44,661 nt of DNA, from NCBI GenBank assembly GCA_903854455.1, contig CAINWJ010000159.1, positions 1 through 44,661 of the forward strand, given 5' to 3'. The DNA is from Candidatus Peribacteria bacterium (GTDB lineage Bacteria > Patescibacteriota > Gracilibacteria > Peribacterales > Peribacteraceae). Both the position numbers and the translations under genes were made by a program. Below the pieces are notes generated by a model. It did no database searches and was not told the DNA's origin. It was given only the letters and a program-made list of their open reading frames with translations. This document shows positions 3,323-42,430 of the stretch, in pieces. Position 1 is the stretch's first letter. Every line of letters starts with the position of its first letter.

Positions 3323-3397
3323 CAGGAGTGGTCAGCGATCTGTAATAGTTCGCAGAGATCTTTTCTGCTACATGATTAAGCTGACCGCTGACCGCTG

Positions 3398-5659
3398 CTA
3401 CGCCACCTTCGTGAACTCCTTCGTGAACGCCTCCAGGATATCCCCTGTTTCGATGGTCGAGGTACAGGTGACGCGCATGCCGCACTCGGAACCCTCCTTG
3501 GCTTCCTTGATGTCCTTCTCGACGTGCTTGAGCGATGTGATGCGACCGGTACCGGCAAGCTGCTCCCCACGCATCAGCCTGAACGGCGTACGCTTGAGGT
3601 AGCCGTCTGCAACTTTGCCTCCGATGATTTGCTCGCTGCCCTTGGTGAAGAAGACACCACGAACTTCCAGATGTCCGGTGACACGCTCCTCCTCCACCGG
3701 AACGATCAGACCCTTGAGCAGCAACTCCAGATCCTCGAGCAGCTTGTAGATGATGTCGTACTGCTTGACCGCCACACCTTCACGATCCGCGGTCTTGTGG
3801 ACGGCGGAGGGAACATCTGCGTTGAACCCGACGACGATGGCACCACCGGCGGCAGCCATCATGACATCACTTTCCGTCACATCGCCAACAGCCGCATGAA
3901 TGACCTTGGGATGCACCTTCTCCGTCGTGAGTTTCCTCATAGCTTCCTGGATGGACTCCAGTGATCCCTGTGCATCGGCCTTGAGAATGATCTTGAGTTC
4001 CTTGAGCTTGCCTTCAGAGAGACGGCTCACCAGATCCGCAAAACCGTGCTTGGCTTCACGGCCACGCGATTCCTGGTAGGCAGTGAGATAATCCTTGAGC
4101 TCCCGATCTGTTGCGAAGACCTGCAGAATATCTCCCGCCTGAGGTAGCTTACCAAGCCCCGCGACAACAGCCGGTCCCGACGGACCGACATGATCGATGC
4201 GCTCCGTGCGCTCATCGAATAGCGCTTTCACACGACCATCCACGCCGCCGCATCCGATGATATCGCCGACAGCCAGCGTGCCAGTATTGACGATCACGGT
4301 AGCCAACGGTCCGCGGGATTTGTCGAGGTGACTCTCGATCACGGTTGCGATCGCCGGACGTGAAACATTTGCCTTCAGTTCCTCCATCTCAGCGACAAGT
4401 AGAATGTGCTCGAGAAGCTCCGGAATCCCCTGCTTGGTCACGGCGGAACATGGAATGACCGGGACAGTGCCGCCCCAATCCTCCGGCTGCAATCCCTGAC
4501 CGGCGAGCTCGCCTTTCACACGCTCGGGATCGGCATTGGGACGATCGATCTTGTTGAGTGCGACGATGATGGGCACCTCGGCGTCCTTGGCATGGTTGAT
4601 GGCTTCGATGGTCGTCGGCTTCACACCTTCCTCAGCTGAAACGACCAGAATGGCGATGTCGGTGAGCTGTGCGCCCCTGGCACGCATGGCGGTGAATGCC
4701 TCGTGACCCGGTGTATCGATGAACGTGATGGGCTTGCCCTCGTGGATCACCTGATACGCACCGACGTGCTGCGTGATGCCTCCAGCTTCACCGGCAACAA
4801 CGTTGGCATGACGAATGGCATCCAAAATCGCTGTCTTGCCGTGGTCGACGTGACCCATGACGGTCACGATGGGAGCACGCGGTGTGAGCTTGGCAGGATC
4901 ATCTTCCTTGGTCAGAGTCGCCAAGTCATTGTGCAGCAGCGCCTCCACCGAGACGGAGCCGACGTCCCGCTCCACCGTGACACCCAGCTCCAGCGCAACG
5001 ATGGATGCCGTCTCGAAGTCGATCTGCTGGTTGATGGTCGCCATGACGCCGCTCTTCATGAGTGCACCGATGACGCGCGGAACCTGGATACCCGCTTTCT
5101 CGGCAAATTCTTTGACCGTGATGCTGGAAGGAAGCAAAACAGGACCGGACTTCTGCTTGATCTGGACCTGATGATCGGGATTCGACTTACGATTCAATTG
5201 CTTGAGGAGCTTGTTCTCGACGAGCCGCTGCTCCAGTTCTTCCTTACTCAAGACCTTGGGTCGCTTCATCTCCCGCGCCATCGCCTGCTTCTGACGATCG
5301 ACCGCTGCCTGGGACACGTTCTCCAGTGTCAGCTTGCGCATGATGTTGAGATTCTCAGGCTTCAGCACTTTGGGTGCGGCCTGTTCAGAAGTGACAGGAG
5401 TATCGGTAGACGCAGCTGCTTCCTCCGGCTTCTCATCCTCCTCATCACCTGCCTCTTTCTTGCCGGTACGGATAGCTTCGACCGCCTCCCAATCAACGTT
5501 GATTTTGCGCTTGTTGGCGACAAACCGGATGACACCCATCGCCAGTCCGTCAGCCACTTCACGGTCCGTCGGACGGACACCGAAATCGACCTGCGTCAGT
5601 TCATGACGGAGCTCCTGTCCACTGATGCCGAGGATTTTTGCAACCTGAACGAGACGCAT
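3398..5659 (-). CDS. infB: Translation initiation factor IF-2
   Basis: GTPase motifs [16 protein letters not shown] and NKID are present. The N-terminal helix [12 protein letters not shown] is IF2-N-like. It is 753 aa and full length. Confidence 0.97.
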
Positions 5660-5711
5660 GTGCGAGGCAAGAGTAGCACGGAGGAGGCGCTCGGTGATAG
5701 TGGCTTCGTGA

Positions 5712-5796
5712 GAGGGTCAGGTATCAGGGTCAGGGTCAGGGAACGCGCATGGAAAATTGAGAGGTCAATCCTGACCCCGACCCTCACCCTGACCCT
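5712..5796. repeat. Low-complexity inverted repeat, GGGTCAGG family
   Basis: G-arm 5712-5741 (gagggtcaggtatcagggtcagggtcaggg). C-arm 5770-5796 (cctgaccccgaccctcaccctgaccct). The loop is about 28 nt. It lies between the nrnA-like stop (5795, inside the C-arm) and the infB start (5659). Confidence 0.85.
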
Positions 5797-7102
5797 ACTT
5801 ATTCAACTCCCCAACCACATCAATCGCTGGTTTAGATGGCGTTGATGGCTTCGGCGCTTCCTGAGGCACTGACGCAGAAACGGGCTTCGTCACCACCGGA
5901 GCTTTCACAGCAACGCGCTCCACCCGCTCCCCTTCGCCACGCTGACGCAAGGCTTCCACCTTCATCTGCTGGATGCACTCGACGACCTTGAGCTGGAAGT
6001 TCGGGTACTGCTTCACTTTGAATCCGGACGCACGCGCATGACCACCGCCGCCGAAGAGTCTGCCTGCCATGACGTTCACATCGATCGCGGCGGAGGACCG
6101 GAGACTCGCCTTGAATCCGCCATCCTCGACCTCGGTGAACAGTGCGTGGACGTCGGCATCCGGAACCGTCGTAATCAATTCGTCTAAAATCCCCTGCGTC
6201 TCCTTCGACGTCGCCGCCATCTCCGCGAAGTCATCGCGACTGACAGTCGACCAGACGATGCGCGCCTCGGGGTCAACCTGGATCCGGTTCAGTGCACGAC
6301 CCCAGATCTTCAGGGTCGAGAGCGGCTTGGTCTTGTATACGTGCTGAATAATCTCCTGCTGCCGTGCGCCCATATCCAGCAGATTGGCAGCAACCTCGAG
6401 AGACCGCGGTGTGGTATTCGGATTCTGAAAACTGCGAGTATCGGTGATCAATCCCGTGAGAAGTAAGGTAGCGATATCCGCCGTGACCTTGTCCTTCCAC
6501 TGGGGCGTTGCCATGAACCAGTGATACAGAACTTCGGTAGCACTGGCGGACGTGGGGTCGATGAGATGCGTCTGACCGAACGCTGAATTGCTGATGTGAT
6601 GGTCGACGTTGAGGATGGGCACGTTCGAGAATAGTTCCGTGTGCTCCGTGTACGTGGAGCCAAGCAACGTGAGATCGGCGGTATCGATGACGAGGATGAG
6701 GTCATACTTGGAGCCATCGGAGAACACTGAGACGTTCTTCGGATTGATCCTCCCCTTCTTCGGCATCACGATGATGTTCACCTTGGAGTCCTCAACGGTG
6801 TACCGGAGCTTCTCGATCTCGACGCCATTGGAGCAATCAAGCGTGATGATGCACTCCTGCTCCTCCTTGAGTGTGGTGGAGAGCATCTCCGCATTCGGCA
6901 GAAACTTGAGCGACTCCGGCAGCGTATCAGCACACACCACGGTGCACTCCTTTCCAAGTGAGCGAAACAGCGAATAGCACGCCAGCGCACTCCCGAGTGC
7001 ATCAGGATCAGGATTGGCATGCGGCAGGATGAGGATCTTCTGCGCGTGCTCGATGATCGTCGTGGCCGTCTGGATATCGGTAGAACTCAAGGGCATAGAC
7101 AA
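5795..7102 (-). CDS. nrnA: DHH/DHHA1 family phosphoesterase (NrnA-like oligoribonuclease/pAp phosphatase) with C-terminal extension
   Basis: DHH motif NVDHHISN, DHHA1 motif GGGHARASG and an N-terminal HANPDPDALGS motif are present. A Pro/Val/Ser-rich tail of about 100 aa follows the catalytic core. Confidence 0.82.
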   Translation of the reverse strand: MSMPLSSTDIQTATTIIEHAQKILILPHANPDPDALGSALACYSLFRSLGKECTVVCADTLPESLKFLPNAEMLSTTLKEEQECIITLDCSNGVEIEKLRYTVEDSKVNIIVMPKKGRINPKNVSVFSDGSKYDLILVIDTADLTLLGSTYTEHTELFSNVPILNVDHHISNSAFGQTHLIDPTSASATEVLYHWFMATPQWKDKVTADIATLLLTGLITDTRSFQNPNTTPRSLEVAANLLDMGARQQEIIQHVYKTKPLSTLKIWGRALNRIQVDPEARIVWSTVSRDDFAEMAATSKETQGILDELITTVPDADVHALFTEVEDGGFKASLRSSAAIDVNVMAGRLFGGGGHARASGFKVKQYPNFQLKVVECIQQMKVEALRQRGEGERVERVAVKAPVVTKPVSASVPQEAPKPSTPSKPAIDVVGELNK

Positions 7103-7254
7103 GTGTTCTTACTATTGTAACATAATATTATTAGATAATCAAGTATAGGTTCTGTCTAGTGAGGGGGAAAAGGGCGAGATCGTACAGCAAAGGAGCGGCT
7201 CGTGCCAGAGGAAAGGATCGCTCCGATTGCAACAACAACCCTCATTTATCGAAG

Positions 7255-7273
7255 CTGCGACATCGTGTCGCAG
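7255..7273. other. Perfect 8-bp stem / 3-nt loop hairpin ctgcgaca-tcg-tgtcgcag
   Basis: Read directly from the sequence. It lies 20 nt beyond the 3' end of tRNA-Pro on the minus strand. The same 8-nt stem halves recur at 35919-35926 and 35962-35969. Confidence 0.6.
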
Positions 7274-7293
7274 ACATTTGCTACAAATTATGA

Positions 7294-7369: not shown

Positions 7370-7373
7370 AACG

Positions 7374-7462
7374 GAGCGGTAAGCGGCAAGCGCAGAAATA
7401 TTGGGGATGCCTGACGCAACTCAATCTTAGCGCTGATCGCTAATCGCTGAAAGCTAATCGCT
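7374..7462. repeat. Low-complexity inverted repeat, AGCGGTAA/CGCTAATC family
   Basis: Left arm 7374-7393 (gagcggtaagcggcaagcgc). Right arm 7430-7449 (gcgctgatcgctaatcgctg), continuing as aaagctaatcgct to 7462. Hand pairing gives 16/20 positions paired, counting G.T. Confidence 0.65.
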
Positions 7463-7468
7463 CCTCCG

Positions 7469-9148: not shown

Positions 9149-9149
9149 A

Positions 9150-9196
9150 CTCGGATTATATACCGAGATGCTGATCGCTTACCGCTAATCGCTTAC
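9150..9196. repeat. Small hairpin plus single arm of the CGCTAATC word family
   Basis: Hairpin ctcgg-attatata-ccgag spans 9150-9167. It is followed by gctgatcgcttaccgctaatcgcttac at 9170-9196. That arm has the same orientation and words as 7430-7462 on the other side of the Cys-rich gene, and it overlaps the eno stop. Confidence 0.6.
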
Positions 9197-10478: not shown

Positions 10479-10572
10479 GAGAATGTAAAATGTAGAATGT
10501 AGAATTATTGATTCACCGCAAGAGTAAGCGATGTACCGTCATTCTACATTTTACATTCTACATTTTACATTC
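10479..10572. repeat. Low-complexity inverted repeat, GAATGTA/AAATGTA family (ORF-less copy)
   Basis: G-arm 10479-10505 (gagaatgtaaaatgtagaatgtagaat). C-arm 10541-10572 (attctacattttacattctacattttacattc). The first 21 nt from the gaatgta start of the G-arm match the reverse complement of the C-arm exactly. The loop is 35 nt. Confidence 0.9.
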
Positions 10573-11431: not shown

Positions 11432-11510
11432 CGAATAGGCGTATAGGCGTTAAGCGAATAGACGAGTGGGGGAAGACTCGCTTACACGCTTAACGCTTAC
11501 ACGCTTAACG
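11432..11510. repeat. Low-complexity inverted repeat, GGCGTATA/GCGTTAAG family
   Basis: Arms are 11432-11466 and 11477-11510 with a 10-nt loop (tgggggaaga). Hand pairing gives about 24 Watson-Crick pairs, 3 G.T, 4 A.C and 2 A.A. Confidence 0.8.
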
Positions 11511-11949: not shown

Positions 11950-12041
11950 AGGTAAGGTATGTAAGATAAGTAAGGTACGTACAGCAGGGAAATTCTTCAG
12001 GCACCTACCTTACCTGCCTTACCTTCTTTACCTGCCTTACC
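11950..12041. repeat. Low-complexity inverted repeat, GGTAAGGTA family (locus A)
   Basis: G-arm 11950-11982 and C-arm 12002-12041. The C-arm is read as the last 15 codons (GKAGKEGKAGKVGA) of ORF 11997..12365. Confidence 0.85.
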
Positions 12042-12365
12042 GTTCTTCAATTCCTTTTTCGTCCCCTGCAATTTCGATAGTAAATCCGCCACCTGTCTCT
12101 CCAGTCCGCGCTGGGCAAGTGTGCGTGAGGGACGGATCAGAAGATAAATCAGAAAACCGATCACCGGAAGAACGGCAACGAGCAGAATGCACAGCGTCTG
12201 GTAGATGAAGGAATTGGTTCTGAGGATGATGTCCCGTGTCGCGAAGAGAACCAGGAAAATGATGATGCAGGCAGCCAGGATCATCGAGAGCTGCATGAAG
12301 AACACGGGCGAATCAGCGGAGAAAATCGTTGAAACGTCCGGGAAAATGGAGAGGAGCTGCGACAC
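11997..12365 (-). CDS. Small membrane protein, PLD-nuclease-N-terminal (PLDc_N)-like
   Basis: It has two hydrophobic helices, and the second ends in LPVIGFLIYLLIRP, which is typical of PLDc_N-type small membrane proteins. The C-terminal 15 residues are encoded by the repeat arm. Confidence 0.55.
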   Translation of the reverse strand: MSQLLSIFPDVSTIFSADSPVFFMQLSMILAACIIIFLVLFATRDIILRTNSFIYQTLCILLVAVLPVIGFLIYLLIRPSRTLAQRGLERQVADLLSKLQGTKKELKNGKAGKEGKAGKVGA

Positions 12366-13308: not shown

Positions 13309-13331
13309 TGATGAGAGAATAGCATGTGAAT

Positions 13332-13423
13332 GGCAGGTAAGGTAGGTAAGGAAAGTAAGGTACGTAAAGCACGTGTTTTCACCTACCTTACATACCTTAC
13401 GTGCAATACCTACCTTACTTTCC
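13332..13423. repeat. Low-complexity inverted repeat, GGTAAGGTA family (locus B)
   Basis: G-arm from 13332 (ggcaggtaaggtaggtaaggaaagtaaggtacgtaaag). C-arm 13380-13423 (cacctaccttacataccttacgtgcaatacctaccttactttcc). Confidence 0.88.
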
Positions 13424-13447
13424 GATTCCGGCTTCCAAATTTGCTAT

Positions 13448-15514: not shown

Positions 15515-15953
15515 GGAGAATGTAGAATGTAGAATGTAAAATGTAGAATGATGGAATTAATTCTTCTTACTGGACTTGATGATCGCTGTCAGCAACCGGA
15601 TCAATTCATCGACATCCTTGAGTAATGAAGCGGCTTCTTTGAGCGTAAAATAACCTCCGTCGCGCAACAGGGAAATCCAGTAATCTGATTCGTGAGCCTC
15701 ATTCAACGCGATATTCAACTTCGAGATAAATTCCTTCTTGCTTTGCGCGTTCACTCCTTCACGAATATTGGCCCCAATGCCAGTCCCTGAACGCAAGAGC
15801 TGATTACTCAAAACAAATTCGTGTTTTATCTTCGTCAAATATTGATACGCCTTCACAATGCGGTGTGCAAAAGCGTAACTCTTGACCACAACAATATTTT
15901 CTTTGGCTGGTTTTTCCATAACGTTCATTCTACATTCTATATTTTACATTCTC
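15515..15953. repeat. GAATGTA/AAATGTA-family inverted repeat whose arms bracket the four-helix-bundle ORF
   Basis: G-arm 15515-15549 (gagaatgtagaatgtagaatgtaaaatgtagaatg). C-arm 15926-15953 (cattctacattctatattttacattctc). The 376-nt loop is essentially the ORF 15557..15928, and the ORF start codon lies inside the C-arm. Confidence 0.85.
15557..15928 (-). CDS. Four-helix-bundle protein (23S rRNA intervening-sequence protein / Avd-like family)
   Basis: Family-typical core: SNQLLRSGTGIGANIREG...SKKEFISKLNIALNEAHESDYWISLL. 123 aa. Confidence 0.85.
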   Translation of the reverse strand: MNVMEKPAKENIVVVKSYAFAHRIVKAYQYLTKIKHEFVLSNQLLRSGTGIGANIREGVNAQSKKEFISKLNIALNEAHESDYWISLLRDGGYFTLKEAASLLKDVDELIRLLTAIIKSSKKN

Positions 15954-17394: not shown

Positions 17395-17568
17395 AGGTAA
17401 GGTAAGTAATGTAGGTAAAGGTAGGTAAGGTAGGTGAGATGTAAAAAGAATTATCGAGGATTGATGCTGCTAAGAGAGTGAAAGAAAGACAATAACCGAG
17501 AACTTTGATTGAAGGATTGTGAATGCACGTACCTTACTTACCTTACGTGCCTTACCTACCTTACCTAG
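17395..17568. repeat. Low-complexity inverted repeat, GGTAAGGTA family (locus C)
   Basis: G-arm 17395-17444 and C-arm 17526-17568, with a loop of about 81 nt. The rseP stop (17565-17567) lies in the C-arm, and the dnaA start is 7 nt from the G-arm. Confidence 0.88.
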
Positions 17569-18665: not shown

Positions 18666-18705
18666 GAAAACAACTTGGAAGGGAGGAACCGGACAATATC
18701 AGACA

Positions 18706-18731
18706 TGTGGATAATGAAAAAGTTTTCCACA
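18706..18731. promoter_or_regulatory. Inverted pair of DnaA boxes
   Basis: TGTGGATAA at 18706-18714 is a perfect reverse complement of TTATCCACA. TTTTCCACA at 18723-18731 matches 8/9. The spacer is 8 nt. The pair lies 41-66 nt upstream of the rseP start. Confidence 0.45.
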
Positions 18732-18813
18732 GCCACTTCGGGTTGCAGATGTTTAGGAAGAATGATGGAGAGGAAGATCCATCGATTTGTTTTCGCCGAT
18801 TGCTCAGGAGATG

Positions 18814-18842
18814 TTGACGATAGCGTCGCTTCTCTTTACCCT
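18814..18842 (+). promoter_or_regulatory. Candidate sigma70-type promoter for tRNA-Val
   Basis: TTGACG (18814-18819), a 17-nt spacer, then TACCCT (18837-18842). The tRNA begins at 18857. The -10 element is weak. Confidence 0.3.
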
Positions 18843-18856
18843 TGCCAAGCTCACTC

Positions 18857-19023: not shown

Positions 19024-22000
19024 CTATCTGCTGCCACCAAGGGTACTGATCCTCGCATCGATCCTCCGGAGCAAACGGTCACGTATGTTTCCGAGAATCA
19101 TTCGTGCCCCAGGAAACTGAGTCAATGCAAGTCGTTGATCGATGCGCTTGAGCAAACGCATGCGCATGAATTGAAGGAGCTGGAGAGCGGAAGAGGAGGA
19201 ATCATGAGTATCGGAGGCAGCATGAAGCACAGATGATGACGAGGAAGAAGATGCCATCGTTTGTTGTGCCGCTACCTCCATGCGACGTGCCAGTGTCTGA
19301 GAACGAGCACCTCCTGACGTCACGACGGTTGCCTGGGATGAAGCAGCGGACACTGAAGAGGAGGAGGATGACGAAGAGGAAGATGATGATGACGAAGAAG
19401 AGTCTGACGATGCTTGAGTGAAGACGCTGATCCTGTTACCGGAAGCATCTGAAACGAAAAGGCGACTTGAAGCCCCATCGTAAGTAACACCGGTGGGGTT
19501 ACTCATGCCATTCTGCGTGCCACCCCCCGCCGTACTCCGGGTGAAGTTCGGCTGTCCGAGAACGCTCAGAGCATTTTGTCCGTCAGTGATAGTGGCGATG
19601 TTCTGAATCGTGATTCTGTTATTCAAATATTCTACGATGAAGAGACGGCTCCCTGTCGGATCGTACGAGAGCCCGTAGGGATAGGAGACGCCGTTCTGCG
19701 TCGTAGCCGTCGCACTGGTATAGAAAACCGGCTGACCGAGCACGTTGTCCGGAATGCGATCGACAAACGTGCCGTTTGCATTGAGTGCATAGACGAGGAC
19801 GCGGTGATTGCCGAACTCGGAAACGAAGAGCCTGTGTCCGATAGTATCCACGGCCAGGGCGTAAGGAGATGACAACCCGAACTTGTTTGGCGCATTGCTC
19901 GACGATACTTTATTGAAGACCATGACCGGTGCCGCGATACTGTCATCCAGTTGCCCGAGACCATCGATAGCATTCTGACCGTCGGTCACGGTACTCACAT
20001 TCTGAACGATCATGCGATTATTCCCCGCATCAGAAATGAATAGGCGGTTCGATATCGGATCAAAAAGAACGCCATAGGGAGTCCTGAGGGTGTTCTGGGT
20101 GGTCCCGTAAGCACTCGCAGTGAAATTCGATTGTCCGAGGACATTCACGGCATTCTGACCGTTGACAATCGCTGCGACACTGAATGCCAGAACACGGTTA
20201 TTCTGAGTATCACTGACGAAGAGGCGACTGCCTGTCGGATCGTACGTGACGCCGAAAGGCGTATTCATGCCGTTCTGAGTCGCAGCGGAAGTGCTGCGGG
20301 AAAAGTTCGGTTGACCAAGGACGTTCGCCGCGTTTTGCCCGTCAGAAATGGACGCCACTGCCTGCACGATGACACGATTGTTGAGGTAATCCGCAATGAA
20401 GAGACGACTGTTTGTTGCATCGTAGTCGAGGCAGTAGGGATAATTCATACCGTTCTGCGTCGTGACACCCGCACTCCTCGCATAGTTCGGTTGACCTAAA
20501 ACATTCGCAGCATTCTGCCCGTCCGTGATGGAAGCAACATTCTGAACTAGCACGCGGCTATTACCGTAGTCAGCGATGAAGAGGCGGTTGCCGGCAGCAT
20601 CAAAGACCAAGCCATATGGATTGGAAATCCCGTTCTGGGTTGTGGCGGATGCACTCGATACGTAGTTCGGCTGACCCAGAATGTTCGCCGCGTTCTGCCC
20701 ATCGGTGATCGTACTGATGCTCTGAACGAGGATGCGCTTGTTGGTGTAATCGGCGATGAAGAGACGGCTGCCCGCCGGATCGTAGGCGAGACCAGTGGGA
20801 TACCCCATCCCGTTCTGCGTTACCGCAGTCACGTTGGTATAGAACACCGATTGTCCGAGGACGTTATCAGGGATGCGATCGACGAACGTGCCGTCGGCAT
20901 TCAGAGCAAACACGAGGACACGGTAGTTGTAGTAATCGGCGACGAAAAACCGATGACCCGTTGAATCCAGAGCAACGGCGCGACTGCCGCTGAGACCAAG
21001 CCTGTTCGGCAGATTCTGGACCGTTCCTTTCGTGAAAACCGGCGACGGGGCGCTGATGTTGTCATCGTATTGACCCAGAGCATCGACGGCATTCTGACCA
21101 TTAGAGATCACACTCACATCGTGGACGGAAACGCGATGATTGCCGTACTCGGCGACGAAGAGGCGACTATTCGTTGCGTCGTAGGCGATGCCGTAGGGGT
21201 TTTTGAGCCCGTTCTGCGTCGTAGCGGATGCAACAGACGAGAAGTTCGGTTGCCCGAGGACGTTCGCAGCATTCTGCCCGTCCGTGATGGAAGCAACGTT
21301 CTGCACAGTAACGCGTTGATTGCTACCCTCGGAGATGAAGAGTCGACTGTTCGTCGGATCGTACGCAAGCCCGACAGGACGATTCATGCCATTCTGCGTT
21401 GCTGCCGAGGCACCCGTCGAAAACACTGATTGCCCGAGGACGTTGTCAGGGATGCGATCGACGAAGGTGCCGTCTGCATTCAGGGCATACACGAGGACGC
21501 GGCTGTTCATGTAGTCCGCGACGAAGAGACGATGGCCCGCAGTATCGATGGCAGTGGAATAGGGCGAATACAGACCGAACTTGTTCGGATTGTTGTGCGC
21601 CGCGCCCTTGATGTAGACAGGCTGGGGCGCAATCACACTGTCGTCATACTGACCAAGTACATCCGCCGCATTCTGACCGTCGGTGATGGAAGCGACACTC
21701 TGGACAGAAACCCTGTTGTTATCTTTCTCTGAAATGAAGAGGCGGCTTGTTGCAGGTGAGTATGCAAGACCATACGGACCCTTCATACCATTCTGTGTCG
21801 TAGCGAAAGTAGCTGACGCATAGTTCGGTTGTCCCAGAACATTCGTCGCGTTCTGTCCGTCAGTGATGGAGGCGACAGTAAAAACCGTGACACGATGATT
21901 GCTGTTTTCAGCAACGAAGAGACGGCTTGTTGCCGAGTCGTAGGCGAGAAACATGGGAGTAGCCATGCCGTTCTGCGTAGTGACGTTGGTGATCTTTGTA

Positions 22001-23681: not shown

Positions 23682-23790
23682 GGGGGGTAAGGTAGGTAAA
23701 GAAAGTAAGGTATGTAAGGTTGGTTTTTGGCTTTTATATGAGCTTTTCACCTACATTACGTACCTTACCTACAATACTTACATTACCTAG
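23682..23790. repeat. Low-complexity inverted repeat, GGTAAGGTA family (locus D)
   Basis: G-arm 23682-23723 and C-arm 23748-23790. It begins 3 nt after the comF stop. The G-arm is 31/34 identical to the G-arm of locus B. Confidence 0.88.
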
Positions 23791-27300: not shown

Positions 27301-28894
27301 TGACTTCCGCGGACGCGAGAAGCACTCGGAAGAGGAGGAAGTAGGCGTATGGGAGAAGCGCTTCGGGCATATCGATAATCACGCCCTTCAGCACATGCTT
27401 GTGGGACAGACCGACAAAGACAAGGTGAAAGCCATCATCAACCTCCTCACCAAGCGCGGACGCATGGACTTTGAGGACGATCAGCTCTGGTACACACTTG
27501 AGCGATTGTCGAAATATGGCATGCCGCATGACGCTTGCCATCGGGACAACATTCTCCGTAACGCCTACCTGCAGAAACTCATCGCCCAAATCTGGGATGA
27601 CAAAGACCAATTCGAGCACTGGAAGACAGCGAACGACAGCGCTATCAAAAAAGGTAAAGACTCGTTTGCAGCTACAGTAGATGATCTATCGAGCCTTCCG
27701 AAGGGTCAGGCAAGCGCGCTAGCACGCCTGCTGGAAGCATGGGATAAACAAAAGGATCATGGAGCGAAAGTATCTCCGGAAGAAGAGGTAAATCCGCATC
27801 TCTTCGAAGAGCACATTCACTACGCGATGAGAAACGGAAAAATGGGAATGGAAGACAAATTCTTCTACCTCATACAAGGCGTTGCACGCGGTTTACTTAA
27901 CGTCGATCGCCTGCGCTCATTCAATGGACAGGAGGGAAAAATTTTGAATGCCTTTCCGTTTATCGACTTCTTCGATAAGAAAAATAATACCCTAGATGAG
28001 ATCAGAACTATCGCCGAGAGTATTACGAACAAGAAGGCACCATACACACCGGACTACAGAACAACGTACCTTCTGTACGAAGAGGTAAGGAGAAACAAAG
28101 CCGTCCGTGATCGTGCGGCAAAAGGCATCAAGAACTCACAAAACGTCGATCATGAAGACCTGCCAATGCTTATCAGTTTGCTGGATTACGGTAACATCAA
28201 CCAAGCAACAGGCATTGCCGGAGGACAGCTGTGGAGAGTCTCCGCTCCTGCAATGAAGAATATCTATGTGGGATACAATTCGCTATTCCAGTATTATGCT
28301 ATACGCGCCAGAATGATCCTAGAAGGCGTTTCGGGTGTAAAACCATTGACGATGGAGGATATCACAGCGATCACAACTGCTCTGGTTGCGTTCATTCACT
28401 ATGACAACCTAATAACAAGAGCAGCAGATACGGGATCTCGTCCATATTTGACATGGAATGAAATCAATAACGATCCACCTGTTTCGGGTACCCTGCTCAC
28501 AAAGAACTACCGCGACAAAGCGACAGGATTCGCAAAAGAAATTGTAAAAGACAAATTGGGAATCGCTGAGATAACTACAAAAGAAGGAAATGTTACCATA
28601 GATGATGCAATCGGTGTCGGTCGGGACGCAGCTACAGTGGATGAATTAGGTGCTACTAAGAAAAAAGTTCTGATGAGTCAGGCTTGCCAGGAAGATTTGA
28701 CGAAGAACATCAAGAAAAATCTGACAAAGGCTTTCAAAGAAAACCCACAACAAATCCTGAAATGGCTTGCAAAATTTACAGAAGACCCAAGTAAAACACT
28801 CCATCCCGAAGAAGAGGAATTTACATACAGTAACATTAAATCAATCGTACCAACGTGGAGACAAGCGGTTCCACAAACACACGCAATCCACTAG
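24350..28894 (+). CDS. Giant orphan soluble protein (1514 aa) with a single HExxH motif
   Basis: The ORF is uninterrupted over 4.5 kb and starts 9 nt after the preceding stop. It has no signal peptide or TM helices and is highly charged. The motif context is GTGKIYLNMSSVRRDKVNKQRVIEHERNHAFIDV. The start could instead be the internal Met at 24410. Confidence 0.8.
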   Translation: MIKTNIHCRLTVTEHSLREHRMLRDVPDRRLSADGYLPPNDDMPSADQQDQETSEHRFERWKLGGAEATGTGISDIMKRTHENVVVIDPQLELGALRESDILWDLVSVDGIMDREMGELLKSKASSVNLTMNEKETNLQELMSAKPKNVGSILWVIRNNIESAEELSQMLEKRLKVLGMHDPAMLQKKLEELRDTSTSEEKFGVLTEAGITKQDVQRIAEKISGQKDAAKELTDRTLDAVINFLWNTVIIRKRQSLFAERTGKENPYTSDARADYIRTLKQQEECVEKYLKAMLQSKIKLIGDRLKLYYTQIGRKGAGMDVKDFDRAYGLEDRMRDIEGLQAKIEAAAGLQRGRAGGKKPIDFESLMTSLGTLETLEREVGSLPSAGKTELGSDAEDVNFKNNVEQSVEEGNRNEDMAVEIAKSLKHVRETNTDPAATAELDRMWERYQPYAAGLDSIERQFTSQADCTVHRMSMRQMPYHHIQRDLITVSTLTLEPTYFSDGLAKQEAARKNHPNTKQGREELRQLLGTSITGIQKQTQGDIARVLSIGPNLAKQNEVLEAQLRDAEKHPDITKREQMFLAAATEIRELAAANRLLGETWVVEIDKPTVFEKITQLQPGIAMNTYGYYVLGTGKIYLNMSSVRRDKVNKQRVIEHERNHAFIDVMCRRTKALPGLLVHTRMALDNAASEQGTTAEELLKTFAKECKIDMTHPGWRELTMDEAAVVCADYLGGKKKTLTDAQKNVLRTLGLEKSADDGIPDHDSLRQTTPKEQRAKSGKQKIGQRMAADDIQEGYEPESGAVETKSTEAEGEYPFLKNLDEVKWKLDRIDDFMKVYPQNLQADAGEGQNYEQYINEIKKRLKVTENLFTQKNVADDRQEKILQQMIEDLDFDTGDIMKAIKEFDSKRMDMTHVAPSTKRTLFQKASERIVWCSLSDIWGMIKDAGEDINRMWKRRSEDARAKLGRAVTATFIPEKIPYFGRLQYDFRGREKHSEEEEVGVWEKRFGHIDNHALQHMLVGQTDKDKVKAIINLLTKRGRMDFEDDQLWYTLERLSKYGMPHDACHRDNILRNAYLQKLIAQIWDDKDQFEHWKTANDSAIKKGKDSFAATVDDLSSLPKGQASALARLLEAWDKQKDHGAKVSPEEEVNPHLFEEHIHYAMRNGKMGMEDKFFYLIQGVARGLLNVDRLRSFNGQEGKILNAFPFIDFFDKKNNTLDEIRTIAESITNKKAPYTPDYRTTYLLYEEVRRNKAVRDRAAKGIKNSQNVDHEDLPMLISLLDYGNINQATGIAGGQLWRVSAPAMKNIYVGYNSLFQYYAIRARMILEGVSGVKPLTMEDITAITTALVAFIHYDNLITRAADTGSRPYLTWNEINNDPPVSGTLLTKNYRDKATGFAKEIVKDKLGIAEITTKEGNVTIDDAIGVGRDAATVDELGATKKKVLMSQACQEDLTKNIKKNLTKAFKENPQQILKWLAKFTEDPSKTLHPEEEEFTYSNIKSIVPTWRQAVPQTHAIH

Positions 28895-28905
28895 AATGAC
28901 TGAGC

Positions 28906-30046: not shown

Positions 30047-30146
30047 AGTAAGGTAGGTATTGTAGGTAAGGTAAGTAAAGTAGGTGATCAATCAGCCCAC
30101 ATACCTTACGTACATTACCTACCTTACGTACCTTACATACCTTACC
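30047..30146. repeat. Low-complexity inverted repeat, GGTAAGGTA family (locus E)
   Basis: G-arm 30047-30087 and C-arm 30098-30146. It lies between the proB stop and the proC start. The 44-nt stretch 30044-30087, which contains the G-arm, is 39/44 identical to the reverse complement of the locus B C-arm. Confidence 0.88.
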
Positions 30147-32317: not shown

Positions 32318-32413
32318 TGGTTTGGTGGTTTGGTAGTTTACTGGTTGGGTAGTTTGGCTGTTTCAAAAAAGCATAAACCAGTAAACCATGAAAACCACCA
32401 AACTAGTAAACCC
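32318..32413. repeat. Low-complexity inverted repeat, GGTTTGGT/AGTTTACT family
   Basis: G-arm 32318-32357 (tggtttggtggtttggtagtttactggttgggtagtttgg). C-arm 32375-32413 (aaaccagtaaaccatgaaaaccaccaaactagtaaaccc). The loop contains tttcaaaaaagc. It fills the spacer between the convergent genes proA and dut. Confidence 0.88.
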
Positions 32414-32422: not shown

Positions 32423-32851
32423 TCATCCTGTACTCCCAAAACCTCCCCTCGTCTCCGCTCCGTGATCATCAACCTCCTGCCACTCTGCACGATCGATTCT
32501 GACGAATAATCCCTGTGCAATCCGCTCCCCTCTCTCCACGGTCACCGGCTTGTCCGTCACGTTCTGCACCTGCACAAAGATCTCGTCCTTGGGTCCGTGG
32601 TAGTCATGATCGATCAATCCGAGCGAATGCGGGCAAATAAGCCCCTTCTTCCGCGGCAAGGAGGATCTCGGCATGACAAGCAACGCGTAACCTTCCGGAA
32701 CCTTGATGATGACGTTCCCCGGAATCAGGCCAATGGCATGCGGTGCGACCGTCGTGGTTTCCCGTGTAACGAAATCGAACGCAGCCGAACCCGAGGTCTC
32801 GTACCTAGGTAGCGGCAGTGCCGGATCGACGCGGGTGATGGGGACGAGCAT
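32423..32851 (-). CDS. dut: dUTP diphosphatase
   Basis: Motifs GSAAFD, PRSS, GLIDHDYHG and a C-terminal RGGFGSTG are present. The track ORF extends to 32956 through the repeat (PDPDPD). I place the start at ATG 32851, which gives 142 aa. Confidence 0.92.
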   Translation of the reverse strand: MLVPITRVDPALPLPRYETSGSAAFDFVTRETTTVAPHAIGLIPGNVIIKVPEGYALLVMPRSSLPRKKGLICPHSLGLIDHDYHGPKDEIFVQVQNVTDKPVTVERGERIAQGLFVRIDRAEWQEVDDHGAETRGGFGSTG

Positions 32852-32856
32852 GGAAC

Positions 32857-32984
32857 GGGGTCGGGTATCGGGGTCAGGGTCAGGAAAGTATTGAAAACTG
32901 AACCGGGCGAGTGAATCAACAATGATCGAATGGTCGAGATGATCAAATTCAAGCATGCCCGACCCTGACCCTCCCCCTGACCCT
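32857..32984. repeat. Low-complexity inverted repeat, GGGTCAGG family
   Basis: G-arm 32857-32884 (ggggtcgggtatcggggtcagggtcagg). C-arm 32958-32984 (cccgaccctgaccctccccctgaccct). The loop is 73 nt. It lies between the ftsZ stop (32983) and the dut start. Confidence 0.85.
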
Positions 32985-34269
32985 ATTTCCCAATTTTCTT
33001 CCTCATAAACGTCGGCACCTCCAGCTCTTCCTCATTCAGCTGTGAGCCGGAGAGCTTGATAACAGCATCATCCGTGCGTTCGCCGGAACGGGTGAGATCG
33101 GAAGGAGCGGATTTCTTAAAGGAGGGGAGACTCTTGAGAACCGGCACTTGTGACTGCGCCATCGGCGAATCTTTCTTCTCGTCGAAACCGGTGGCGATCA
33201 CCGTACACTTCACCTGACCGGTGTACGCATCGTCGATGACGGCACCGAAGATGATGTTGGCCTCCGGATCGGCGGCCTCCGTGATGATGCGGGCGGCTTC
33301 ATCGACCTCGAACATGCTCATGTCGTTGCCACCGGTGATGTTGAAGAGAATGCCCTTGGCTCCGCTGATACTGAGTTCCAGGAGCGGAGAATCGACGGCT
33401 GCACGTGCGGCTTCCGACGCCCTGCTGTCACCGGTGCCATACCCGATGCCCATGAGAGCGGAACCGGCATCCTGCATGACAGAACGAACGTCCGCGAAGT
33501 CGACGTTCACCAGTCCGTGGATGGTGATGAGGCTCGCGATGCCCTCGATACCGTGGCGGAGAATTTCATCAACGATCTGGAACGCCTCGGTGAGCGGGGT
33601 TGTTTTGTCGATGAGCGAGAGGATGCGATCGTTCGGGATCGTGATGAGCGTATCGACCTTGCCGCGAAGTGCCTCCAACGCCTCATCAGCCTGCTTGCGA
33701 CGACGAAGTCCTTCGAAGCTGAACGGTCTCGTAACCACACCGACGGTCAGAACACCGAGTGAGCGTGCCAGTTCGGCAATGTACGGAGCGGCACCGGAAC
33801 CTGTTCCTCCACCCAGACCAGCCGTGATGAAGACGAGGTCAGCTCCTTCGATAACCTTCTTGAGCTCCTCCGCACTCTCCTTGGCTGACTGCAGTCCGAT
33901 GTCCGGATTGGCACCGGCACCCAGCCCGCGTGTCGTTCCGCGACCGATGTTCACCTTCTGTGCCGCAGGACTGTGGAACAGTGCCTGTGCATCCGTATTG
34001 ACGGCGATGAACTCGACTCCCCCGACCTTGCCGGAGATCATCCGTGAGACGGCGTTGCTGCCACCGCCACCGACGCCGATAACTTTGATGATGGCATTGG
34101 GAGCGATATCCGGACGGACTTCCTGATGACCGCTGGCGGAAGCCGGAGGTGTCGCGGTGTCATCGAAGCTGCTGCTGCCGGCGGAGGAAGCCTTGGTACC
34201 GCCGAACAGATTGCCGGACGAGGAGGAACCCTTGGAACCGGAGAAGAGGGAACGGAGCGTGTCGGACAT
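32983..34269 (-). CDS. ftsZ: Cell division protein FtsZ
   Basis: The tubulin signature [10 protein letters not shown] is present. There is a Ser/Gly-rich N-terminal extension of about 55 aa and a C-terminal peptide [11 protein letters not shown]. Confidence 0.97.
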
Positions 34270-35725: not shown

Positions 35726-35764
35726 CATGGAAAATTCCCATGAAATTGGAAAATTATTTTCCAT
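35726..35764. promoter_or_regulatory. AT-rich operator-like palindrome GGAAAAT-T-ATTTTCC plus a third half-site
   Basis: A perfect 7-1-7 palindrome lies at 35748-35762, and an additional ATGGAAAAT lies at 35727-35735. The site is 125-160 nt upstream of the ftsA start. Confidence 0.3.
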
Positions 35765-35889
35765 ATGTAGATAAGGAAAGAACGTCCAAGTAACACTAAA
35801 TGTATTCATCAAAAATTCACCGAGTACAAAAAGTGCACGAGATTCGGTATTTGCTGATGAGCTAGGGCTCGGGGAAATCCTATTACATC

Positions 35890-35974
35890 CGTAGCCGGGG
35901 CATCGTGCCCCGGTCGTCCTGCGACACGCCGCTTGCCGGCCAAAGCCGAGCGAAGGCTGGATGTCGCAGCTACG
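35890..35974. ncRNA. Unassigned GC-rich structured element (three-helix junction); strand undetermined
   Basis: Hand fold: closing helix cgtag/ctacg (35890-94 with 35970-74). Hairpin ccggggca-tcg-tgccccgg (35895-35913). Helix ctgcgaca/tgtcgcag (35919-26 with 35962-69), which encloses a further cggc-caaa-gccg hairpin. No match to SRP, 6S, tmRNA or RNase P consensus that I can recognise. Confidence 0.3.
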
Positions 35975-35991
35975 AAAATATTCAATTCCTC

Positions 35992-36969: not shown

Positions 36970-37120
36970 GGGAGGGATCAGGGATCAGTAATCAGGGATC
37001 AGTAATCGGGAACAGGGAAATACTCAGAACAAACGAAACTGAGTATGAAGAGTATCAGAAGATAACCAAAGCTGTATCTCCTAAGTAGTAAACCTCCCTG
37101 ACCCTCACACCCGATCCTCA
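36970..37120. repeat. Low-complexity inverted repeat, GGGATCAG / CCCTGACCC words, with nested 8-bp hairpin
   Basis: G-arm 36970-37016 (gggagggatcagggatcagtaatcagggatcagtaatcgggaacaggg). C-arm 37093-37120 (cctccctgaccctcacacccgatcctca). Arm complementarity is only partial. A nested hairpin atactcag/ctgagtat lies at 37020-27 and 37039-46. Confidence 0.6.
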
Positions 37121-38179: not shown

Positions 38180-38309
38180 GAGGAAATAGAGGAAAGAGAC
38201 GAAATAGAAGAATGAGAGAATTACCAAAAAAACGAACTGAAGATCCATTCTGATCTCCTCCTCTATTTCTTCGATTTCCAAATTTTCTTGTATCCTCTAT
38301 TTCCTCTCC
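38180..38309. repeat. Low-complexity inverted repeat, GAAATAGAGGA family
   Basis: G-arm 38180-38218 (gaggaaatagaggaaagagacgaaatagaagaatgagag). C-arm 38255-38309 (ctcctcctctatttcttcgatttcc...cctctatttcctctcc). It lies upstream of the Sel1 lipoprotein gene. Confidence 0.8.
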
Positions 38310-38337
38310 ACCCCTCCTCCTCTACCATACGTCCGCT

Positions 38338-39027
38338 ATGCGTACCTCCCACCTCATCATCACCGCGATCAGCTGCACTGCACTCCTGACAGGATGCGGT
38401 GCCAAAAAAGAAACTCCAACCGCTCCACTGGAATCCAGACAATCACTGGAAGTGAAAGCCAATGCCGGCGATGCTGCTGCTCAGTTCGAGCTGGGTGCCG
38501 CCTACCACGATGGTTCCGGCGGTCCCAAAGACCTCACACTCGCCAAGAGCTGGTTCGAGAAGTCTGCAAAGCAGGGAGATGTCCGGGCGGAGTTTAATCT
38601 GGGTGTGATGTACTACATGGGAGAAGGGTTGAAACAGAATTACGCCGTAGCTCGTAATTGGTTCGAGAAAGCGGCTGCCAAACAGAATCCACGAGCGCAG
38701 TTCAACCTGGGCGTGATGTACTACCGCGGCGAAGGCGTGAAGCAGGATTACAAGAAAGCCATAGACTATTTCTCGCAGGCAGGAACACAGGGTTTCCAGG
38801 AAGCGGCATTCAACCTGGGCGTGATGTATGCCAAGGGTGAAGGTGGAGAAGTGGATGTTGGCAAGGCATACGCGTGGTTCTCCCTCGCACGGGATCTGGG
38901 AAGCGAACGAGCACCGGAGGTACTGAAGAACATCGAACGTGCTCTGAAGCCGGAGCAGGTTACGCTTGCCAAGAGCATGGCAACCGCACTGAAGGAAGAG
39001 GTTCAGAAGCAGACGAAGAAGCAGTAA
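38338..39027 (+). CDS. Sel1-repeat (SLR/TPR-like) lipoprotein
   Basis: The lipobox is LLTGC. Five tandem Sel1 repeats follow (AQFNLGVMYY.GEGV.QDY..A..WF.KAA). Confidence 0.9.
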   Translation: MRTSHLIITAISCTALLTGCGAKKETPTAPLESRQSLEVKANAGDAAAQFELGAAYHDGSGGPKDLTLAKSWFEKSAKQGDVRAEFNLGVMYYMGEGLKQNYAVARNWFEKAAAKQNPRAQFNLGVMYYRGEGVKQDYKKAIDYFSQAGTQGFQEAAFNLGVMYAKGEGGEVDVGKAYAWFSLARDLGSERAPEVLKNIERALKPEQVTLAKSMATALKEEVQKQTKKQ

Positions 39028-39049
39028 CTCGTGCATTTTCAGCCAACGA

Positions 39050-41743: not shown

Positions 41744-41758
41744 CGAAAAGGAATCCTA

Positions 41759-41791
41759 GGAAACCAAAGAAACCAAGGAGTCCAAGGAAGG
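41759..41791. repeat. Single low-complexity arm (AAACCAA/CCAAGGA words)
   Basis: ggaaaccaaagaaaccaaggagtccaaggaagg lies between mgtA and the hydrolase gene. I could find no partner arm in the spacer. Confidence 0.5.
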
Positions 41792-41808
41792 ACGCTATAA
41801 TCAATTCA

Positions 41809-42354
41809 ATGAAGAACGCAGTGATCATCCACGGCACCGGAACACGGAATGATGAGTTCTGGTTTCCGTGGTTTAAGAAGGAACTCGAAGCCAAGGGTTA
41901 TACCGTTTGGCTCCCGCAAATGCCGAATGCGGATCATCCGAATCTGGAGGAATGGCTGCCGTTCATCATGGACCAGGCGTCGTTTACCGAGGATACGATC
42001 TTGATCGGGCATTCCGCCGGAGCGCAGCTGATCCTGAGTATTCTGGAAAGAATCCCGACACCAATTAAACAGGCGATCCTCGTTGCCGGTTATGCCAGGG
42101 CACTACGAGCAAGCGCCGATGATGAAAGTGACGGACTCGTAGATTGGAATAATGCGCACGGGAAATGCCGAAAGATCATCTTTATCAACTCCGATAACGA
42201 TCCGTGGGGATGTGATGATGCACAGGGAAGGATCATGCAGGAAAATCTCGGTGGAGAATTGATTGTAACGAAGGGCGAAGGGCACATGGGATCGACGACC
42301 TACAACCAGCCCTACAAGGAATTCCCGCTGCTGGTGAAATTGTTGAATGCGTGA
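41809..42354 (+). CDS. Alpha/beta serine hydrolase, RBBP9/YdeN-like
   Basis: MKNAVIIHG, the nucleophile elbow LIGHSAG, and the late motifs NSDNDPW and GEGHM are present. The track ORF 41278..42354 overlaps mgtA, so the start is placed at ATG 41809. Confidence 0.85.
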   Translation: MKNAVIIHGTGTRNDEFWFPWFKKELEAKGYTVWLPQMPNADHPNLEEWLPFIMDQASFTEDTILIGHSAGAQLILSILERIPTPIKQAILVAGYARALRASADDESDGLVDWNNAHGKCRKIIFINSDNDPWGCDDAQGRIMQENLGGELIVTKGEGHMGSTTYNQPYKEFPLLVKLLNA

Positions 42355-42372
42355 ATGGAATTGATTGCTTGC

Positions 42373-42430
42373 CTGCGGGGCGGCAGCCCCGCGCTCCTGA
42401 CCCTCACCCCGACCCTCACCCCGACCCTCA
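42373..42430. repeat. GC hairpin motif plus orphan GGGTCAGG-family C-arm
   Basis: ctgcggggcggcagccccgcgctc (42373-42396) is 22/24 identical to the reverse complement of 34317-34340. It is followed by cctgaccctcaccccgaccctcaccccgaccctca (42396-42430). Confidence 0.75.

Follow-up and report, generated by a model that had tools for sequence, protein, structure and literature searches.

Intergenic arrays of short tandem words have been described in several bacterial groups. In cyanobacteria, the short tandemly repeated repetitive (STRR) sequences consist of 7-bp tandem units that fold as intergenic hairpins, for example between hupS and hupL, and transcript stability, termination and translational coupling have been proposed as their roles, none of them proven (PMC2670836). 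In Xanthomonas, heptameric simple sequence repeats (SSRs) of the unit GGGAATC form 70-75 'convergent' inverted pairs per genome, and the corresponding unit in Nostoc is GGGGA(C/T)T (Rehm et al. 2015, PMC4692102). TAACTGA arrays adjoin start codons in Beggiatoaceae, cyanobacteria and Bacteroidetes (PMC4679880). This paper concerns tandem-word hairpins in the spacers of a 44,661-nt contig, CAINWJ010000159.1 (called the window, at its full length), from an uncultured groundwater Candidatus Peribacteria bacterium (Peregrinibacteria; candidate phyla radiation, CPR/Patescibacteria). A first-pass annotation of this DNA knew of no described class to which they could belong; the STRR heptamer hairpins (PMC2670836) and the Xanthomonas inverted pairs (PMC4692102) are such descriptions, and for Peribacteria no account of these hairpins was found in the literature.

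The hairpins may be bidirectional terminators without a U-tract, or 3'-end hairpins, that stand between single-gene transcription units and arise from fast-evolving microsatellites. This reading, one of several on the menu of the first-pass annotation, is the best supported here and is adopted tentatively; like every statement on function below, it is drawn from sequence. All 15 two-armed loci previously reported in the window are present, and each folds as a long imperfect hairpin on both strands, with the G-rich arm on the 5' side throughout. Tandem Repeats Finder (TRF) recovers the word structure of the arms, with periods of 5, 7, 8 and 9. The arms are 20-48 nt long, the loci have 32-59% GC, and the loops range from 4 to 110 nt rather than from 10 to 81 nt as had been given. 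The stop codons at 5795, 17565 and 32983 and the start codon at 15928 do lie inside arms, and the final codons of the open reading frame (ORF) 11997..12365 are indeed arm sequence. The hairpins are less pervasive than the phrase 'nearly every spacer' implied: about 13 of the 22 spacers of at least 25 nt bear one, and the others have conventional GC-rich hairpins or none.

Two controls served to judge the strength of the folds, dinucleotide shuffles and a stricter half-wise kind in which the G-rich and C-rich halves are retained; the inverted-repeat scores were judged against 20 block-shuffled windows. Raw minimum free energy in a sliding window was rejected as a detector, since by this measure GC-rich coding sequence is as strongly folded as the spacers, and a banded inverted-repeat alignment was written because BLAST self-comparison is blind to short-loop palindromes. 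Thirteen of the 15 loci clearly beat the dinucleotide shuffles. The other two, 7374-7462 (fold z -2.1 and -0.9) and 36970-37120 (-1.3 and -1.9), are at chance level as hairpins, and their tandem arrays are genuine by TRF. Of the short-loop loci, 12/14 lie at z of about -3 to -10 against both kinds of shuffle, with half-wise values of just -2.3 to -3.0 at 38180-38309, 32318-32413 and 11950-12041. The pair of arms with a 376-nt loop (15524-15551 and 15925-15952) scores 20.5, compared with 17.0 for the best of the 20 block-shuffled windows. All strong inverted repeats of the window are intergenic; the sole coding match in a strict scan is weak (21153, score 12.5). An assembly artefact was rejected, the same architecture being found in dozens of independent assemblies and in spacers only.

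The class was then followed through the window and 74 Peribacteria loci, 1.27 Mb in all, with the custom alignment at a score cut-off of at least 14. The genes of the relatives were called by a longest-ORF heuristic, and loci from one genome or family count separately though they are non-independent. Inverted repeats occur at 0.68/kb in spacers and 0.025/kb in coding sequence, a 27-fold difference; most of the repeats are composed of tandem words, whose period in the arms of the relatives is 7, 8 or 9. The hairpins are closely tied to the ends of genes. Among 567 homology-checked gene ends, 97 bear a hairpin, and at these the stem begins at a median distance of 7 nt from the stop codon (interquartile range -1 to 17), with 33% of the stems overlapping it. 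The distance from the stem to the next start codon is looser. Convergent spacers are occupied in 15 of 87 cases (17%), tandem spacers in 57 of 415 (14%) and divergent spacers in 6 of 108 (6%), a depletion of the divergent class relative to the others (72/502, p = 0.011) despite its long spacers. The missing U-tract reported for the window was confirmed, and in the wider set at least six T within the next 9 nt follow just 3/40 word hairpins. The 10 nt downstream of the stems are 67% pyrimidine and the 10 nt upstream 64% purine. Consensus terminators composed of a hairpin and a U-tract are not enriched in the window (24 vs 15.7 +/- 4.5 expected, and 15 vs 20.7 +/- 5.2).

Of about 100 relatives compared at the slot downstream of dnaA, some have a word hairpin there and many others a conventional GC hairpin of short length, and in the remainder no repeat could be detected. 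In the window, two conventional GC-rich, non-word hairpins follow the stop codon of the 5'-3' exonuclease gene (35895..35969, minus strand; fold z -3.76, spacer z -5.1 and -4.1), so that ordinary hairpins take the same position in some spacers. This exchange, at both places, was counted as equivalence between the word hairpins and ordinary hairpins. Away from dnaA, hairpins of the GGTAAGG type are present in the L012 genome, on five further contigs, in one marine Patescibacteria metagenome-assembled genome (MAG) and in two MAGs of Thermoflexales (Chloroflexota). In the Thermoflexales hairpins (L145:4780 and L225:897), which are very long and G-first, the arms of 70-90 nt are built from tandem GTGGTCAGGTGGGTAAGGT words and the scores are 39-41; with them the architecture reaches beyond CPR. 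A search for the 16-mer GGTAAGGTAGGTAAGG across 596 Gb returned mostly matches inside genes, at chance level (about 278 expected); those that are hairpins come from Peribacteria, other Patescibacteria and Thermoflexales only.

The polarity is general in the class. The intergenic word-type hairpins of 25 loci are G-first in 39 cases and C-first in one (binomial 7.5e-11), and in the same set a purine-rich 5' arm prevails by 34 : 4. Word-type hairpins in spacers automatically called convergent are G-first by 8 : 0, one of them (window 13328-13428) being in reality in a tandem spacer, and the count is again 8 : 0 for hairpins at loci away from dnaA. Non-word intergenic repeats are G-first in 33 cases and C-first in 19. 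Inverted repeats in coding sequence, at 24 : 19, have no bias, and neither do the repeats, all taken together, of the Moranbacteria outgroup loci (L075-L080). When the arrays in tandem spacers are read on the sense strand, 38 are G-rich and 10 C-rich in the stop-proximal half, compared with 8 and 32 in the start-proximal half (p = 3e-8). The single arms of the window at 9170-9196, 41748-41789, 42399-42430 and 36973-37018 conform to this orientation. Polarity is tied to gene ends and not solely to pairing. Backup stop codons were considered as its cause and rejected: base composition alone yields them, and the GGGTCAG and AGGGCAG words have no stop triplet.

The other side of the hairpin would commonly face a promoter. 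At 181 of 293 homology-checked starts, a -10 hexamer of the form TANNNT has its end 5-13 nt upstream of the start codon, most often at 6 nt (61 starts), and the extended form TGNTANNNT stands 6-11 nt before the start at 91 of the 293 and almost nowhere else. A motif resembling Shine-Dalgarno (SD) sequences is found at -20 to -4 of only 14 of these starts. Pyrimidines make up 70% of positions -10 to -1, and the 20 nt ahead of starts are pyrimidine-rich in general. Since the -10 box is so close to the start codon and SD motifs are nearly absent, leaderless mRNAs are predicted, with a promoter at nearly every gene; no literature report of leaderless, SD-less mRNAs in CPR was found. The promoter motif is present at 39/49 genes preceded by a hairpin and at 130/226 others (p = 0.0036). 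Examples of start-adjacent promoters in the window are those of infB (TGCTACTCT then 11 nt), lgt (TGCTATTCT then 7 nt), hyp559 (TATAAT then 6 nt), proB (TAGAAT then 8 nt), the PRT gene (TACAAT then 7 nt), the hydrolase (TATAAT then 7 nt) and the deaminase (TGATATTCT then 6 nt); motifs of this kind lie at 224-232, 5670-5678, 7114-7122, 13316-13324, 28890-28897, 41796-41801 and 42436-42444, and the same pattern is seen in L001-L074. A general sigma-70 promoter scan of the window gave no enrichment, the signal residing in the motifs placed beside the start codons. The layout thus looks like stop codon, hairpin, promoter, start codon, with most genes predicted to be separate leaderless units. The first-pass annotation had placed some hairpins inside operons (proB/proC, ftsZ/dut, nrnA/infB) and on that ground argued that they are not simply terminators; this objection falls, because infB and proB have promoters of their own and most genes have their own -10 hexamer.

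Upstream of lgt in L057, L046, L051 and L071, the -10 hexamer is itself the last word of the 3' arm (for example AATACTC AATACTC TATACTC, 6 nt, ATG). Certain arrays of words resemble a -10 box copied in tandem. As a general account of the arm words, identity with -10 hexamers was rejected: it holds for the TACCTT, TACATT and TATTCT families and not for GGGTCAG, GGGATCA, GCGGTAA and others. The annotation table of the complete Candidatus Peribacter riflensis genome (PMC4736985 supplement 2) lists nusA, nusB, nusG, rnc, rny and pnp, and contains no rho/K03628 entry. Peribacteria appear to lack Rho, and rut-like C-rich sites, another function once suggested for the hairpins, are unlikely for the same reason.

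The words themselves are replaced quickly. Relatives have ATTGTTAA (L010, L012), AGGTAGGTA (L020), AGGGCAG (L027, L030, L045), TAGGTTTT (L024), TAGAATAT (L046, L051, L057) or TGAGACTT (L034), and one family recurs at several loci of a genome, as in the window and in MFXU01. L010 is syntenic with the window and 73-83% identical in coding DNA; the orthologous spacers are unalignable, and those inspected are hairpins of unrelated words. L083 and L125, with coding sequences 91-97% identical, have four unaligned spacers between their coding blocks, each with a word array or hairpin in both genomes, and in three of the four pairs the words are unrelated (AATGGAC vs GGGACCGAA; AGCAGNA vs GGGACTTAG; AGGCAGAAA vs GTAGCTG). 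Spacers are unalignable even at 94% coding identity. Strain pairs that are 99.5-99.98% identical have zero differences inside hairpins, and metagenome scans for closer relatives of the window found none nearer than L010. Position and architecture are therefore kept while the sequence is replaced far faster than by point substitution. Word variants are mirrored between the arms beyond what word-order permutation gives (Fisher 9e-7, mean z 1.4), with arm boundaries that were optimised on the real order. The best flanking direct repeats average 2.2 nt, compared with 3.4 nt in random controls, and none reaches 5 nt.

Under the terminator reading, the hairpin would begin at or just past the stop codon and end at or just before the next promoter, and a polymerase arriving from either side would be halted or strongly attenuated without a U-tract; the 3' end of the upstream mRNA would probably also be shielded from 3'-5' exonucleases such as polynucleotide phosphorylase (PNPase). 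Non-template G-rich stretches promote pausing and block transcription in an orientation-dependent manner, and G-poor, pyrimidine-rich RNA forms an intrinsically weak hybrid with DNA. In either direction, the polymerase would meet the non-template G-rich stretch first and pause or be blocked, and would then enter the G-poor pyrimidine-rich arm, whose weak RNA:DNA hybrid would take the place of the rU:dA hybrid of a U-tract while the stem zips. Arms made of tandem words could nucleate pairing in several registers and so fold more quickly during transcription. RNA hairpins accommodate long loops and mismatches in the stem more readily than extruded cruciforms do, and the loops of 20-110 nt and the mismatches found here were counted accordingly for an RNA hairpin over a cruciform. 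As to origin, the words may expand by slippage, as microsatellites do, and be copied in mirror orientation into the partner arm through template switching or conversion.

Several observations weigh against this reading. The loci of the census nearly all surround dnaA, with few exceptions elsewhere. Mismatches between the arms, read on the sense strand, comprise 28 G.U and 25 A.C pairs with no preference for G.U, and fold energy favours the sense strand only weakly (mean -2 kcal/mol, p = 0.03). At dut, dnaA and eno, the 3' arm comes within 4-10 nt of the next start codon, which leaves no room for a separate promoter. Arrays outside scored inverted repeats are G-rich near stops by 15 : 5 and C-rich near starts by 13 : 3 (p = 0.002); since unpaired arrays keep the orientation rule, part of the signal is not about pairing. 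Work on mycobacteria indicates that RNA polymerase needs a U-tract at intrinsic terminators (PMC3993855), and termination without one is to that extent an unsafe assumption.

The rapid turnover raises the question of whether the hairpins are anything other than a product of DNA metabolism. In such an account, slippage microsatellites would be mirrored by template switching or by reiterative 3'-end synthesis at breaks and spread by ectopic conversion as a by-product or selfish repeat, and both hairpin and polarity would be non-functional, stemming from the mode of formation or from tolerance at gene ends. The replacement of words between L083 and L125 and between L010 and the window would be expected from this process, as would the recurrence of one family within a genome, the single-arm arrays and the mismatches without a strand-specific RNA signature; heptamer SSRs are, moreover, over-represented in many bacteria, for which polymerase slippage has been proposed (PMC4692102). 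However, an idle repeat would not be expected to stay at its spacer while its sequence changes, to be substituted there by conventional hairpins, or to be anchored within a few nt of stop codons. The divergent spacers are long and yet depleted, the mirroring of word variants exceeds permutation, target-site duplications were not found, and the loci of the sister CPR group Moranbacteria have no polarity. An origin at the DNA level without function is thus considered unlikely.

RNase III-type processing assigns a different task to the same stems. Polycistronic or read-through transcripts would be cut within them, which would separate the cistrons and create near-leaderless 5' ends for translation without SD sequences, and the near absence of SD motifs agrees with such a scheme. 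The predicted stems of 25-48 bp, although mismatched, exceed the roughly 20 bp that the enzyme needs, rnc is present in complete Candidatus P. riflensis, and RNase III is retained across CPR (PMC12641178). Some stems have their 3' base close to the start codon, 4-10 nt away at dut, dnaA and eno, and the 23S_rRNA_IVP gene 15557-15928 inside a stem has the design of the rRNA intervening sequences excised by RNase III. Yet the spacers occupied most often are convergent ones, where there is no downstream cistron to release, and the stems are anchored much more tightly to stop codons than to starts. Most downstream genes have a -10 hexamer of their own, and cleavage would leave the G-first polarity without a reason. 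Processing by RNase III is regarded as quite unlikely.

Very unlikely is a third proposal, in which G-rich arrays after stops and C/U-rich arrays before starts act separately as single strands (as G-quadruplex/i-motif, backup stops, or S1/Csp sites for SD-less initiation) and their complementarity is incidental: it accommodates the orientation rule outside inverted repeats and the pyrimidine-rich 20 nt before starts, the four G3 tracts of the GGGTCAG and GGGATCA arms, the same rule in the G4-forming repeats of Xanthomonas and Nostoc (PMC4692102) and the S1 or Csp sites proposed for start-adjacent TAACTGA arrays (PMC4679880), but most families (GAATGTA, ATTGTTAA, TAGAATAT) lack the capacity for G-quadruplexes, one arm mirrors the other copy for copy, 83 of 141 intergenic arrays lie in inverted-repeat arms, leaderless promoters put the C-rich array outside the gene's own mRNA, and words that vary by genome would oblige a sequence-specific binder to co-evolve. 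Three classes of mobile or arrayed element were also rejected. Miniature transposable elements with inverted repeats (MITEs) do not fit, as target-site duplications are missing and the loops are unrelated; CRISPR arrays do not, as the repeats here are inverted rather than direct; and integron attC sites do not, as the neighbouring housekeeping genes (dnaA, thrS, eno, infB, ftsZ) are syntenic and have promoters of their own.

The individual loci of the window, given without strand where they are inverted repeats, vary in size and in strength. A small GGTCAGC/GCTGACC hairpin lies between the convergent genes hyp418 and infB (3324..3399; z -3.3 and -3.8; score 9.5; GCTGACC x2.6 by TRF). The GGGTCAG-word hairpin at 5713..5796 (z -5.3 and -6.8; score 16.5) has the stop codon of the DHH/nrnA-like gene, 5795-5797, in its arm and is followed by the infB promoter TGCTACTCT at 5670-5678. 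Between hyp559 and the tRNA-Pro gene, the weak GCGGTAA/CGCTAAT pair at 7374..7462 (z -2.1 and -0.9) gave no inverted repeat in the strict scan, its arrays being detected by TRF. At 9170..9196, on the minus strand, a single-arm array found by TRF (sense GGTAAGCGATTAGC) follows the eno stop codon and is succeeded by TATAAT, 6 nt and the ATG of hyp559. The GAATGTA-word hairpin between hyp272 and eno (10481..10572) has arms of 25 nt and a loop of 42 nt; its score of 22.5 exceeds that of all shuffled windows, and its z values are -6.7 and -9.4. The GGCGTATA/GCGTTAAG-word hairpin at 11436..11507 has arms of 32 nt and a loop of 8 nt (z -8.1 and -9.8).

Five loci belong to the GGTAAGGTA family. In the first (11950..12041; z -3.4 and -4.0), the right arm encodes about 15 C-terminal codons of ORF 11997..12365. 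The second (13328..13428; score 20.0; z -5.9 and -9.3) has arms of 48 nt and adjoins the lgt promoter TGCTATTCT at 13316-13324. The third lies between the M50 stop codon and the dnaA start (17395..17566); its arms of 42 nt flank a loop of 89 nt, and it has the highest score in the window (23.0) and z of -6.3 and -6.9. The fourth lies 6 nt past the stop codon of the PRT gene (23686..23787; z -6.5 and -5.7) and the fifth 8 nt past that of proB (30048..30146; score 21.5; z -4.8 and -5.7). Further on, a GGTTTGGT/AGTTTACT-word hairpin separates the convergent genes proA and dut (32320..32411; score 16.5; z -4.4 and -4.3). A GGGTCAG-family hairpin extends from the ftsZ stop codon (TAG 32983-32985) to about 5 nt before the likely dut ATG at 32850-32852 (32857..32984; z -4.2 and -3.6). 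In the divergent exo/hyp212 spacer, TRF detects a strong AGGGATC x6.7 array with only a weak C-rich partner (36973..37120; z -1.3 and -1.9, non-significant), and a GAGGAAATA-word hairpin lies between hyp80 and the Sel1 gene (38180..38306; z -4.6 and -3.2).

Two plus-strand spacers contain single arrays. Directly after the ATPase stop codon, a purine-rich array, AAGGAAACC x4.7 by TRF (41748..41789), precedes TATAAT, which stands 7 nt ahead of the ATG of a serine hydrolase gene (41809-42354, PF06821). In the next spacer (42375..42430, by TRF and sequence), a 7-bp conventional GC hairpin at 42375-42392 precedes one C-rich array, GACCCTCACCCC x2.7; after the array comes TGATATTCT, separated by 6 nt from the ATG at 42451. 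The ftsA/exonuclease spacer as a whole (35742-35991) has strong structure (z -3.8 to -5) in the form of conventional GC-rich hairpins without word arms, and an Rfam search of it found nothing credible. An Rfam scan of the whole window at the gathering score returned two tRNAs only. The GGGTCAG and GGGATCA arms (5713-5741, 32857-32884 and 36970-37018) have at least four G3-4 tracts at G-quadruplex spacing, their partners are i-motif-like, and the arms are similar to GGGNATC repeats that have been investigated in Xanthomonas and Nostoc.

The GAATGTA arms 15524-15551 and 15925-15952 (15524..15952; score 20.5) surround a minus-strand 23S_rRNA_IVP gene at 15557-15928 (PF05635, E 8e-27), which would encode an Avd-like four-helix bundle and sits in the hairpin loop between dnaA and thrS. 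The arm words supply its promoter, TTGAGA-17-TAGAAT. None of 141 related loci has the gene, and the same spot in L010 is occupied by a plain hairpin. Elsewhere the arms affect the gene calls: the ORFs of proC and dut overrun into them, so the longest-ORF starts, 30084 for proC and 32956 for dut, are probably misplaced, and the true starts are likely to be ATG 30186 or 30195 for proC and ATG 32850-32852 (minus strand) for dut. In one relative, an N run marks an assembly gap within a GGTAGCG-word hairpin region (L004:9759-9976); word hairpins seem to break or confuse short-read assemblies.

By Pfam, the window contains infB, a DHH/nrnA-like gene, eno, lgt, thrS, dnaA, an M50 protease gene, proB, proC, proA, dut, ftsZ, ftsA, and genes for a 5'-3' exonuclease and a P-type ATPase; there are two tRNA genes. 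The homologues of its DnaA come almost exclusively from Candidatus Peribacteria MAGs, with L010 the nearest at 94% identity. The cumulative GC skew has its minimum at about 16-19 kb and gene orientation flips at the same place, so the window spans the replication origin, and oriC probably lies at 18666-18856. Upstream of the M50 gene there are a perfect DnaA box (18706-18714, minus strand) and one with a single mismatch (18723-18731, plus strand), and across the window DnaA boxes are in no excess over chance. The gene of a 1286-aa NHL-repeat protein contains coding tandem repeats, a 180-nt unit x3.4 at 21914-22543 and an acidic GAAGAG-type repeat at 19355-19412, which are ordinary protein repeats with no relation to the spacer hairpins.

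If the hairpins are U-tract-independent bidirectional terminators, predictors that look for a hairpin and a U-tract overlook transcript ends across the class, and the polarity rule would be a new, testable design principle. The same rule appears in the Xanthomonas and Nostoc repeats, a functional puzzle since 1990. Peribacteria, where many word families share one architecture, offer a natural experiment that separates structure from sequence. The leaderless, SD-less motif evidence also matters for gene calling in MAGs, as several longest-ORF starts in the window, such as those of proC and dut, are probably wrong. A bolder proposal is that Rho-less, SD-less leaderless genomes end transcripts in a distinct, factor-independent and bidirectional way, in which a G-rich non-template stretch, a weak pyrimidine hybrid and a register-tolerant stem replace the U-tract, that a dedicated or biased DNA process rebuilds the hairpins within about 6% divergence, and that the same logic applies to STRR, the Xanthomonas GGGAATC pairs and the Thermoflexales hairpins. 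Taken as a whole, this proposal is regarded as improbable.

Among known systems, the repetitive extragenic palindromic sequences and bacterial interspersed mosaic elements (REP/BIME) of enterobacteria and pseudomonads stabilise upstream mRNA and attenuate transcription, and REP-associated tyrosine (RAYT) transposases mobilise REPs. They too are imperfect palindromes in spacers at gene 3' ends, grouped in families and strain-variable. Identity with REP/BIME was rejected, since the five GGTAAGGTA loci have nothing but words in common, without relation in word order, arm length or loops, and there is no conserved unit. No RAYT/Y1 transposase is found among the Pfam matches of the window genes. 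The 3' inverted repeats of chloroplast mRNAs, which Stern and Gruissem reportedly recognised in 1987 as processing or stabilising signals rather than efficient terminators, likewise lack a U-tract and follow most genes. Unlike the Peribacteria hairpins, they are not built from tandem words, and we know of no polarity rule for them.

Intrinsic terminators are similar in that a stable hairpin stands just past the stop codon, between transcription units, and the purine-rich 5' and pyrimidine-rich 3' flanks recall the A-tract and U-tract of bidirectional terminators. The Peribacteria hairpins differ in the lack of a U-tract (3/40), in their AT-rich, mismatched stems of 25-48 nt, where intrinsic terminators have GC-rich stems of 5-14 bp, and in loops of up to 110 nt. 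The cyanobacterial STRR also have several unit families and form hairpins between genes; in Peribacteria, the phylum is another one, the arms are longer and about half of the window spacers are occupied.

The Xanthomonas and Nostoc SSRs share several features. They are intergenic tandem heptamers with G-first inverted pairs and a depletion between divergent genes (PMC4692102), and in the same spacers both sequence and length vary between close relatives (PMC4692102). Their rule that the G-rich strand lies downstream and the C-rich strand upstream of genes, on the coding strand, holds here as well. Each of those genomes, however, has one dominant unit with G3-4 tracts, whereas the Peribacteria window has at least 8 unrelated families in 44 kb, with periods of 5-9 and with G3 tracts in the GGGTCAG and GGGATCA families only. 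In Peribacteria, most arrays are paired into long stems, words are fully replaced at about 94% identity, and the host is a CPR bacterium, probably Rho-less, with predicted leaderless mRNAs. The architecture and the orientation rule are thus already known, and unexplained, from cyanobacteria and Xanthomonas. What is distinctive here is the number of unrelated families under one architecture, the near-absolute polarity, the tight anchoring to stop codons and the very fast replacement of words, in a context where leaderless mRNAs are predicted, SD sequences are nearly absent and Rho is probably missing.

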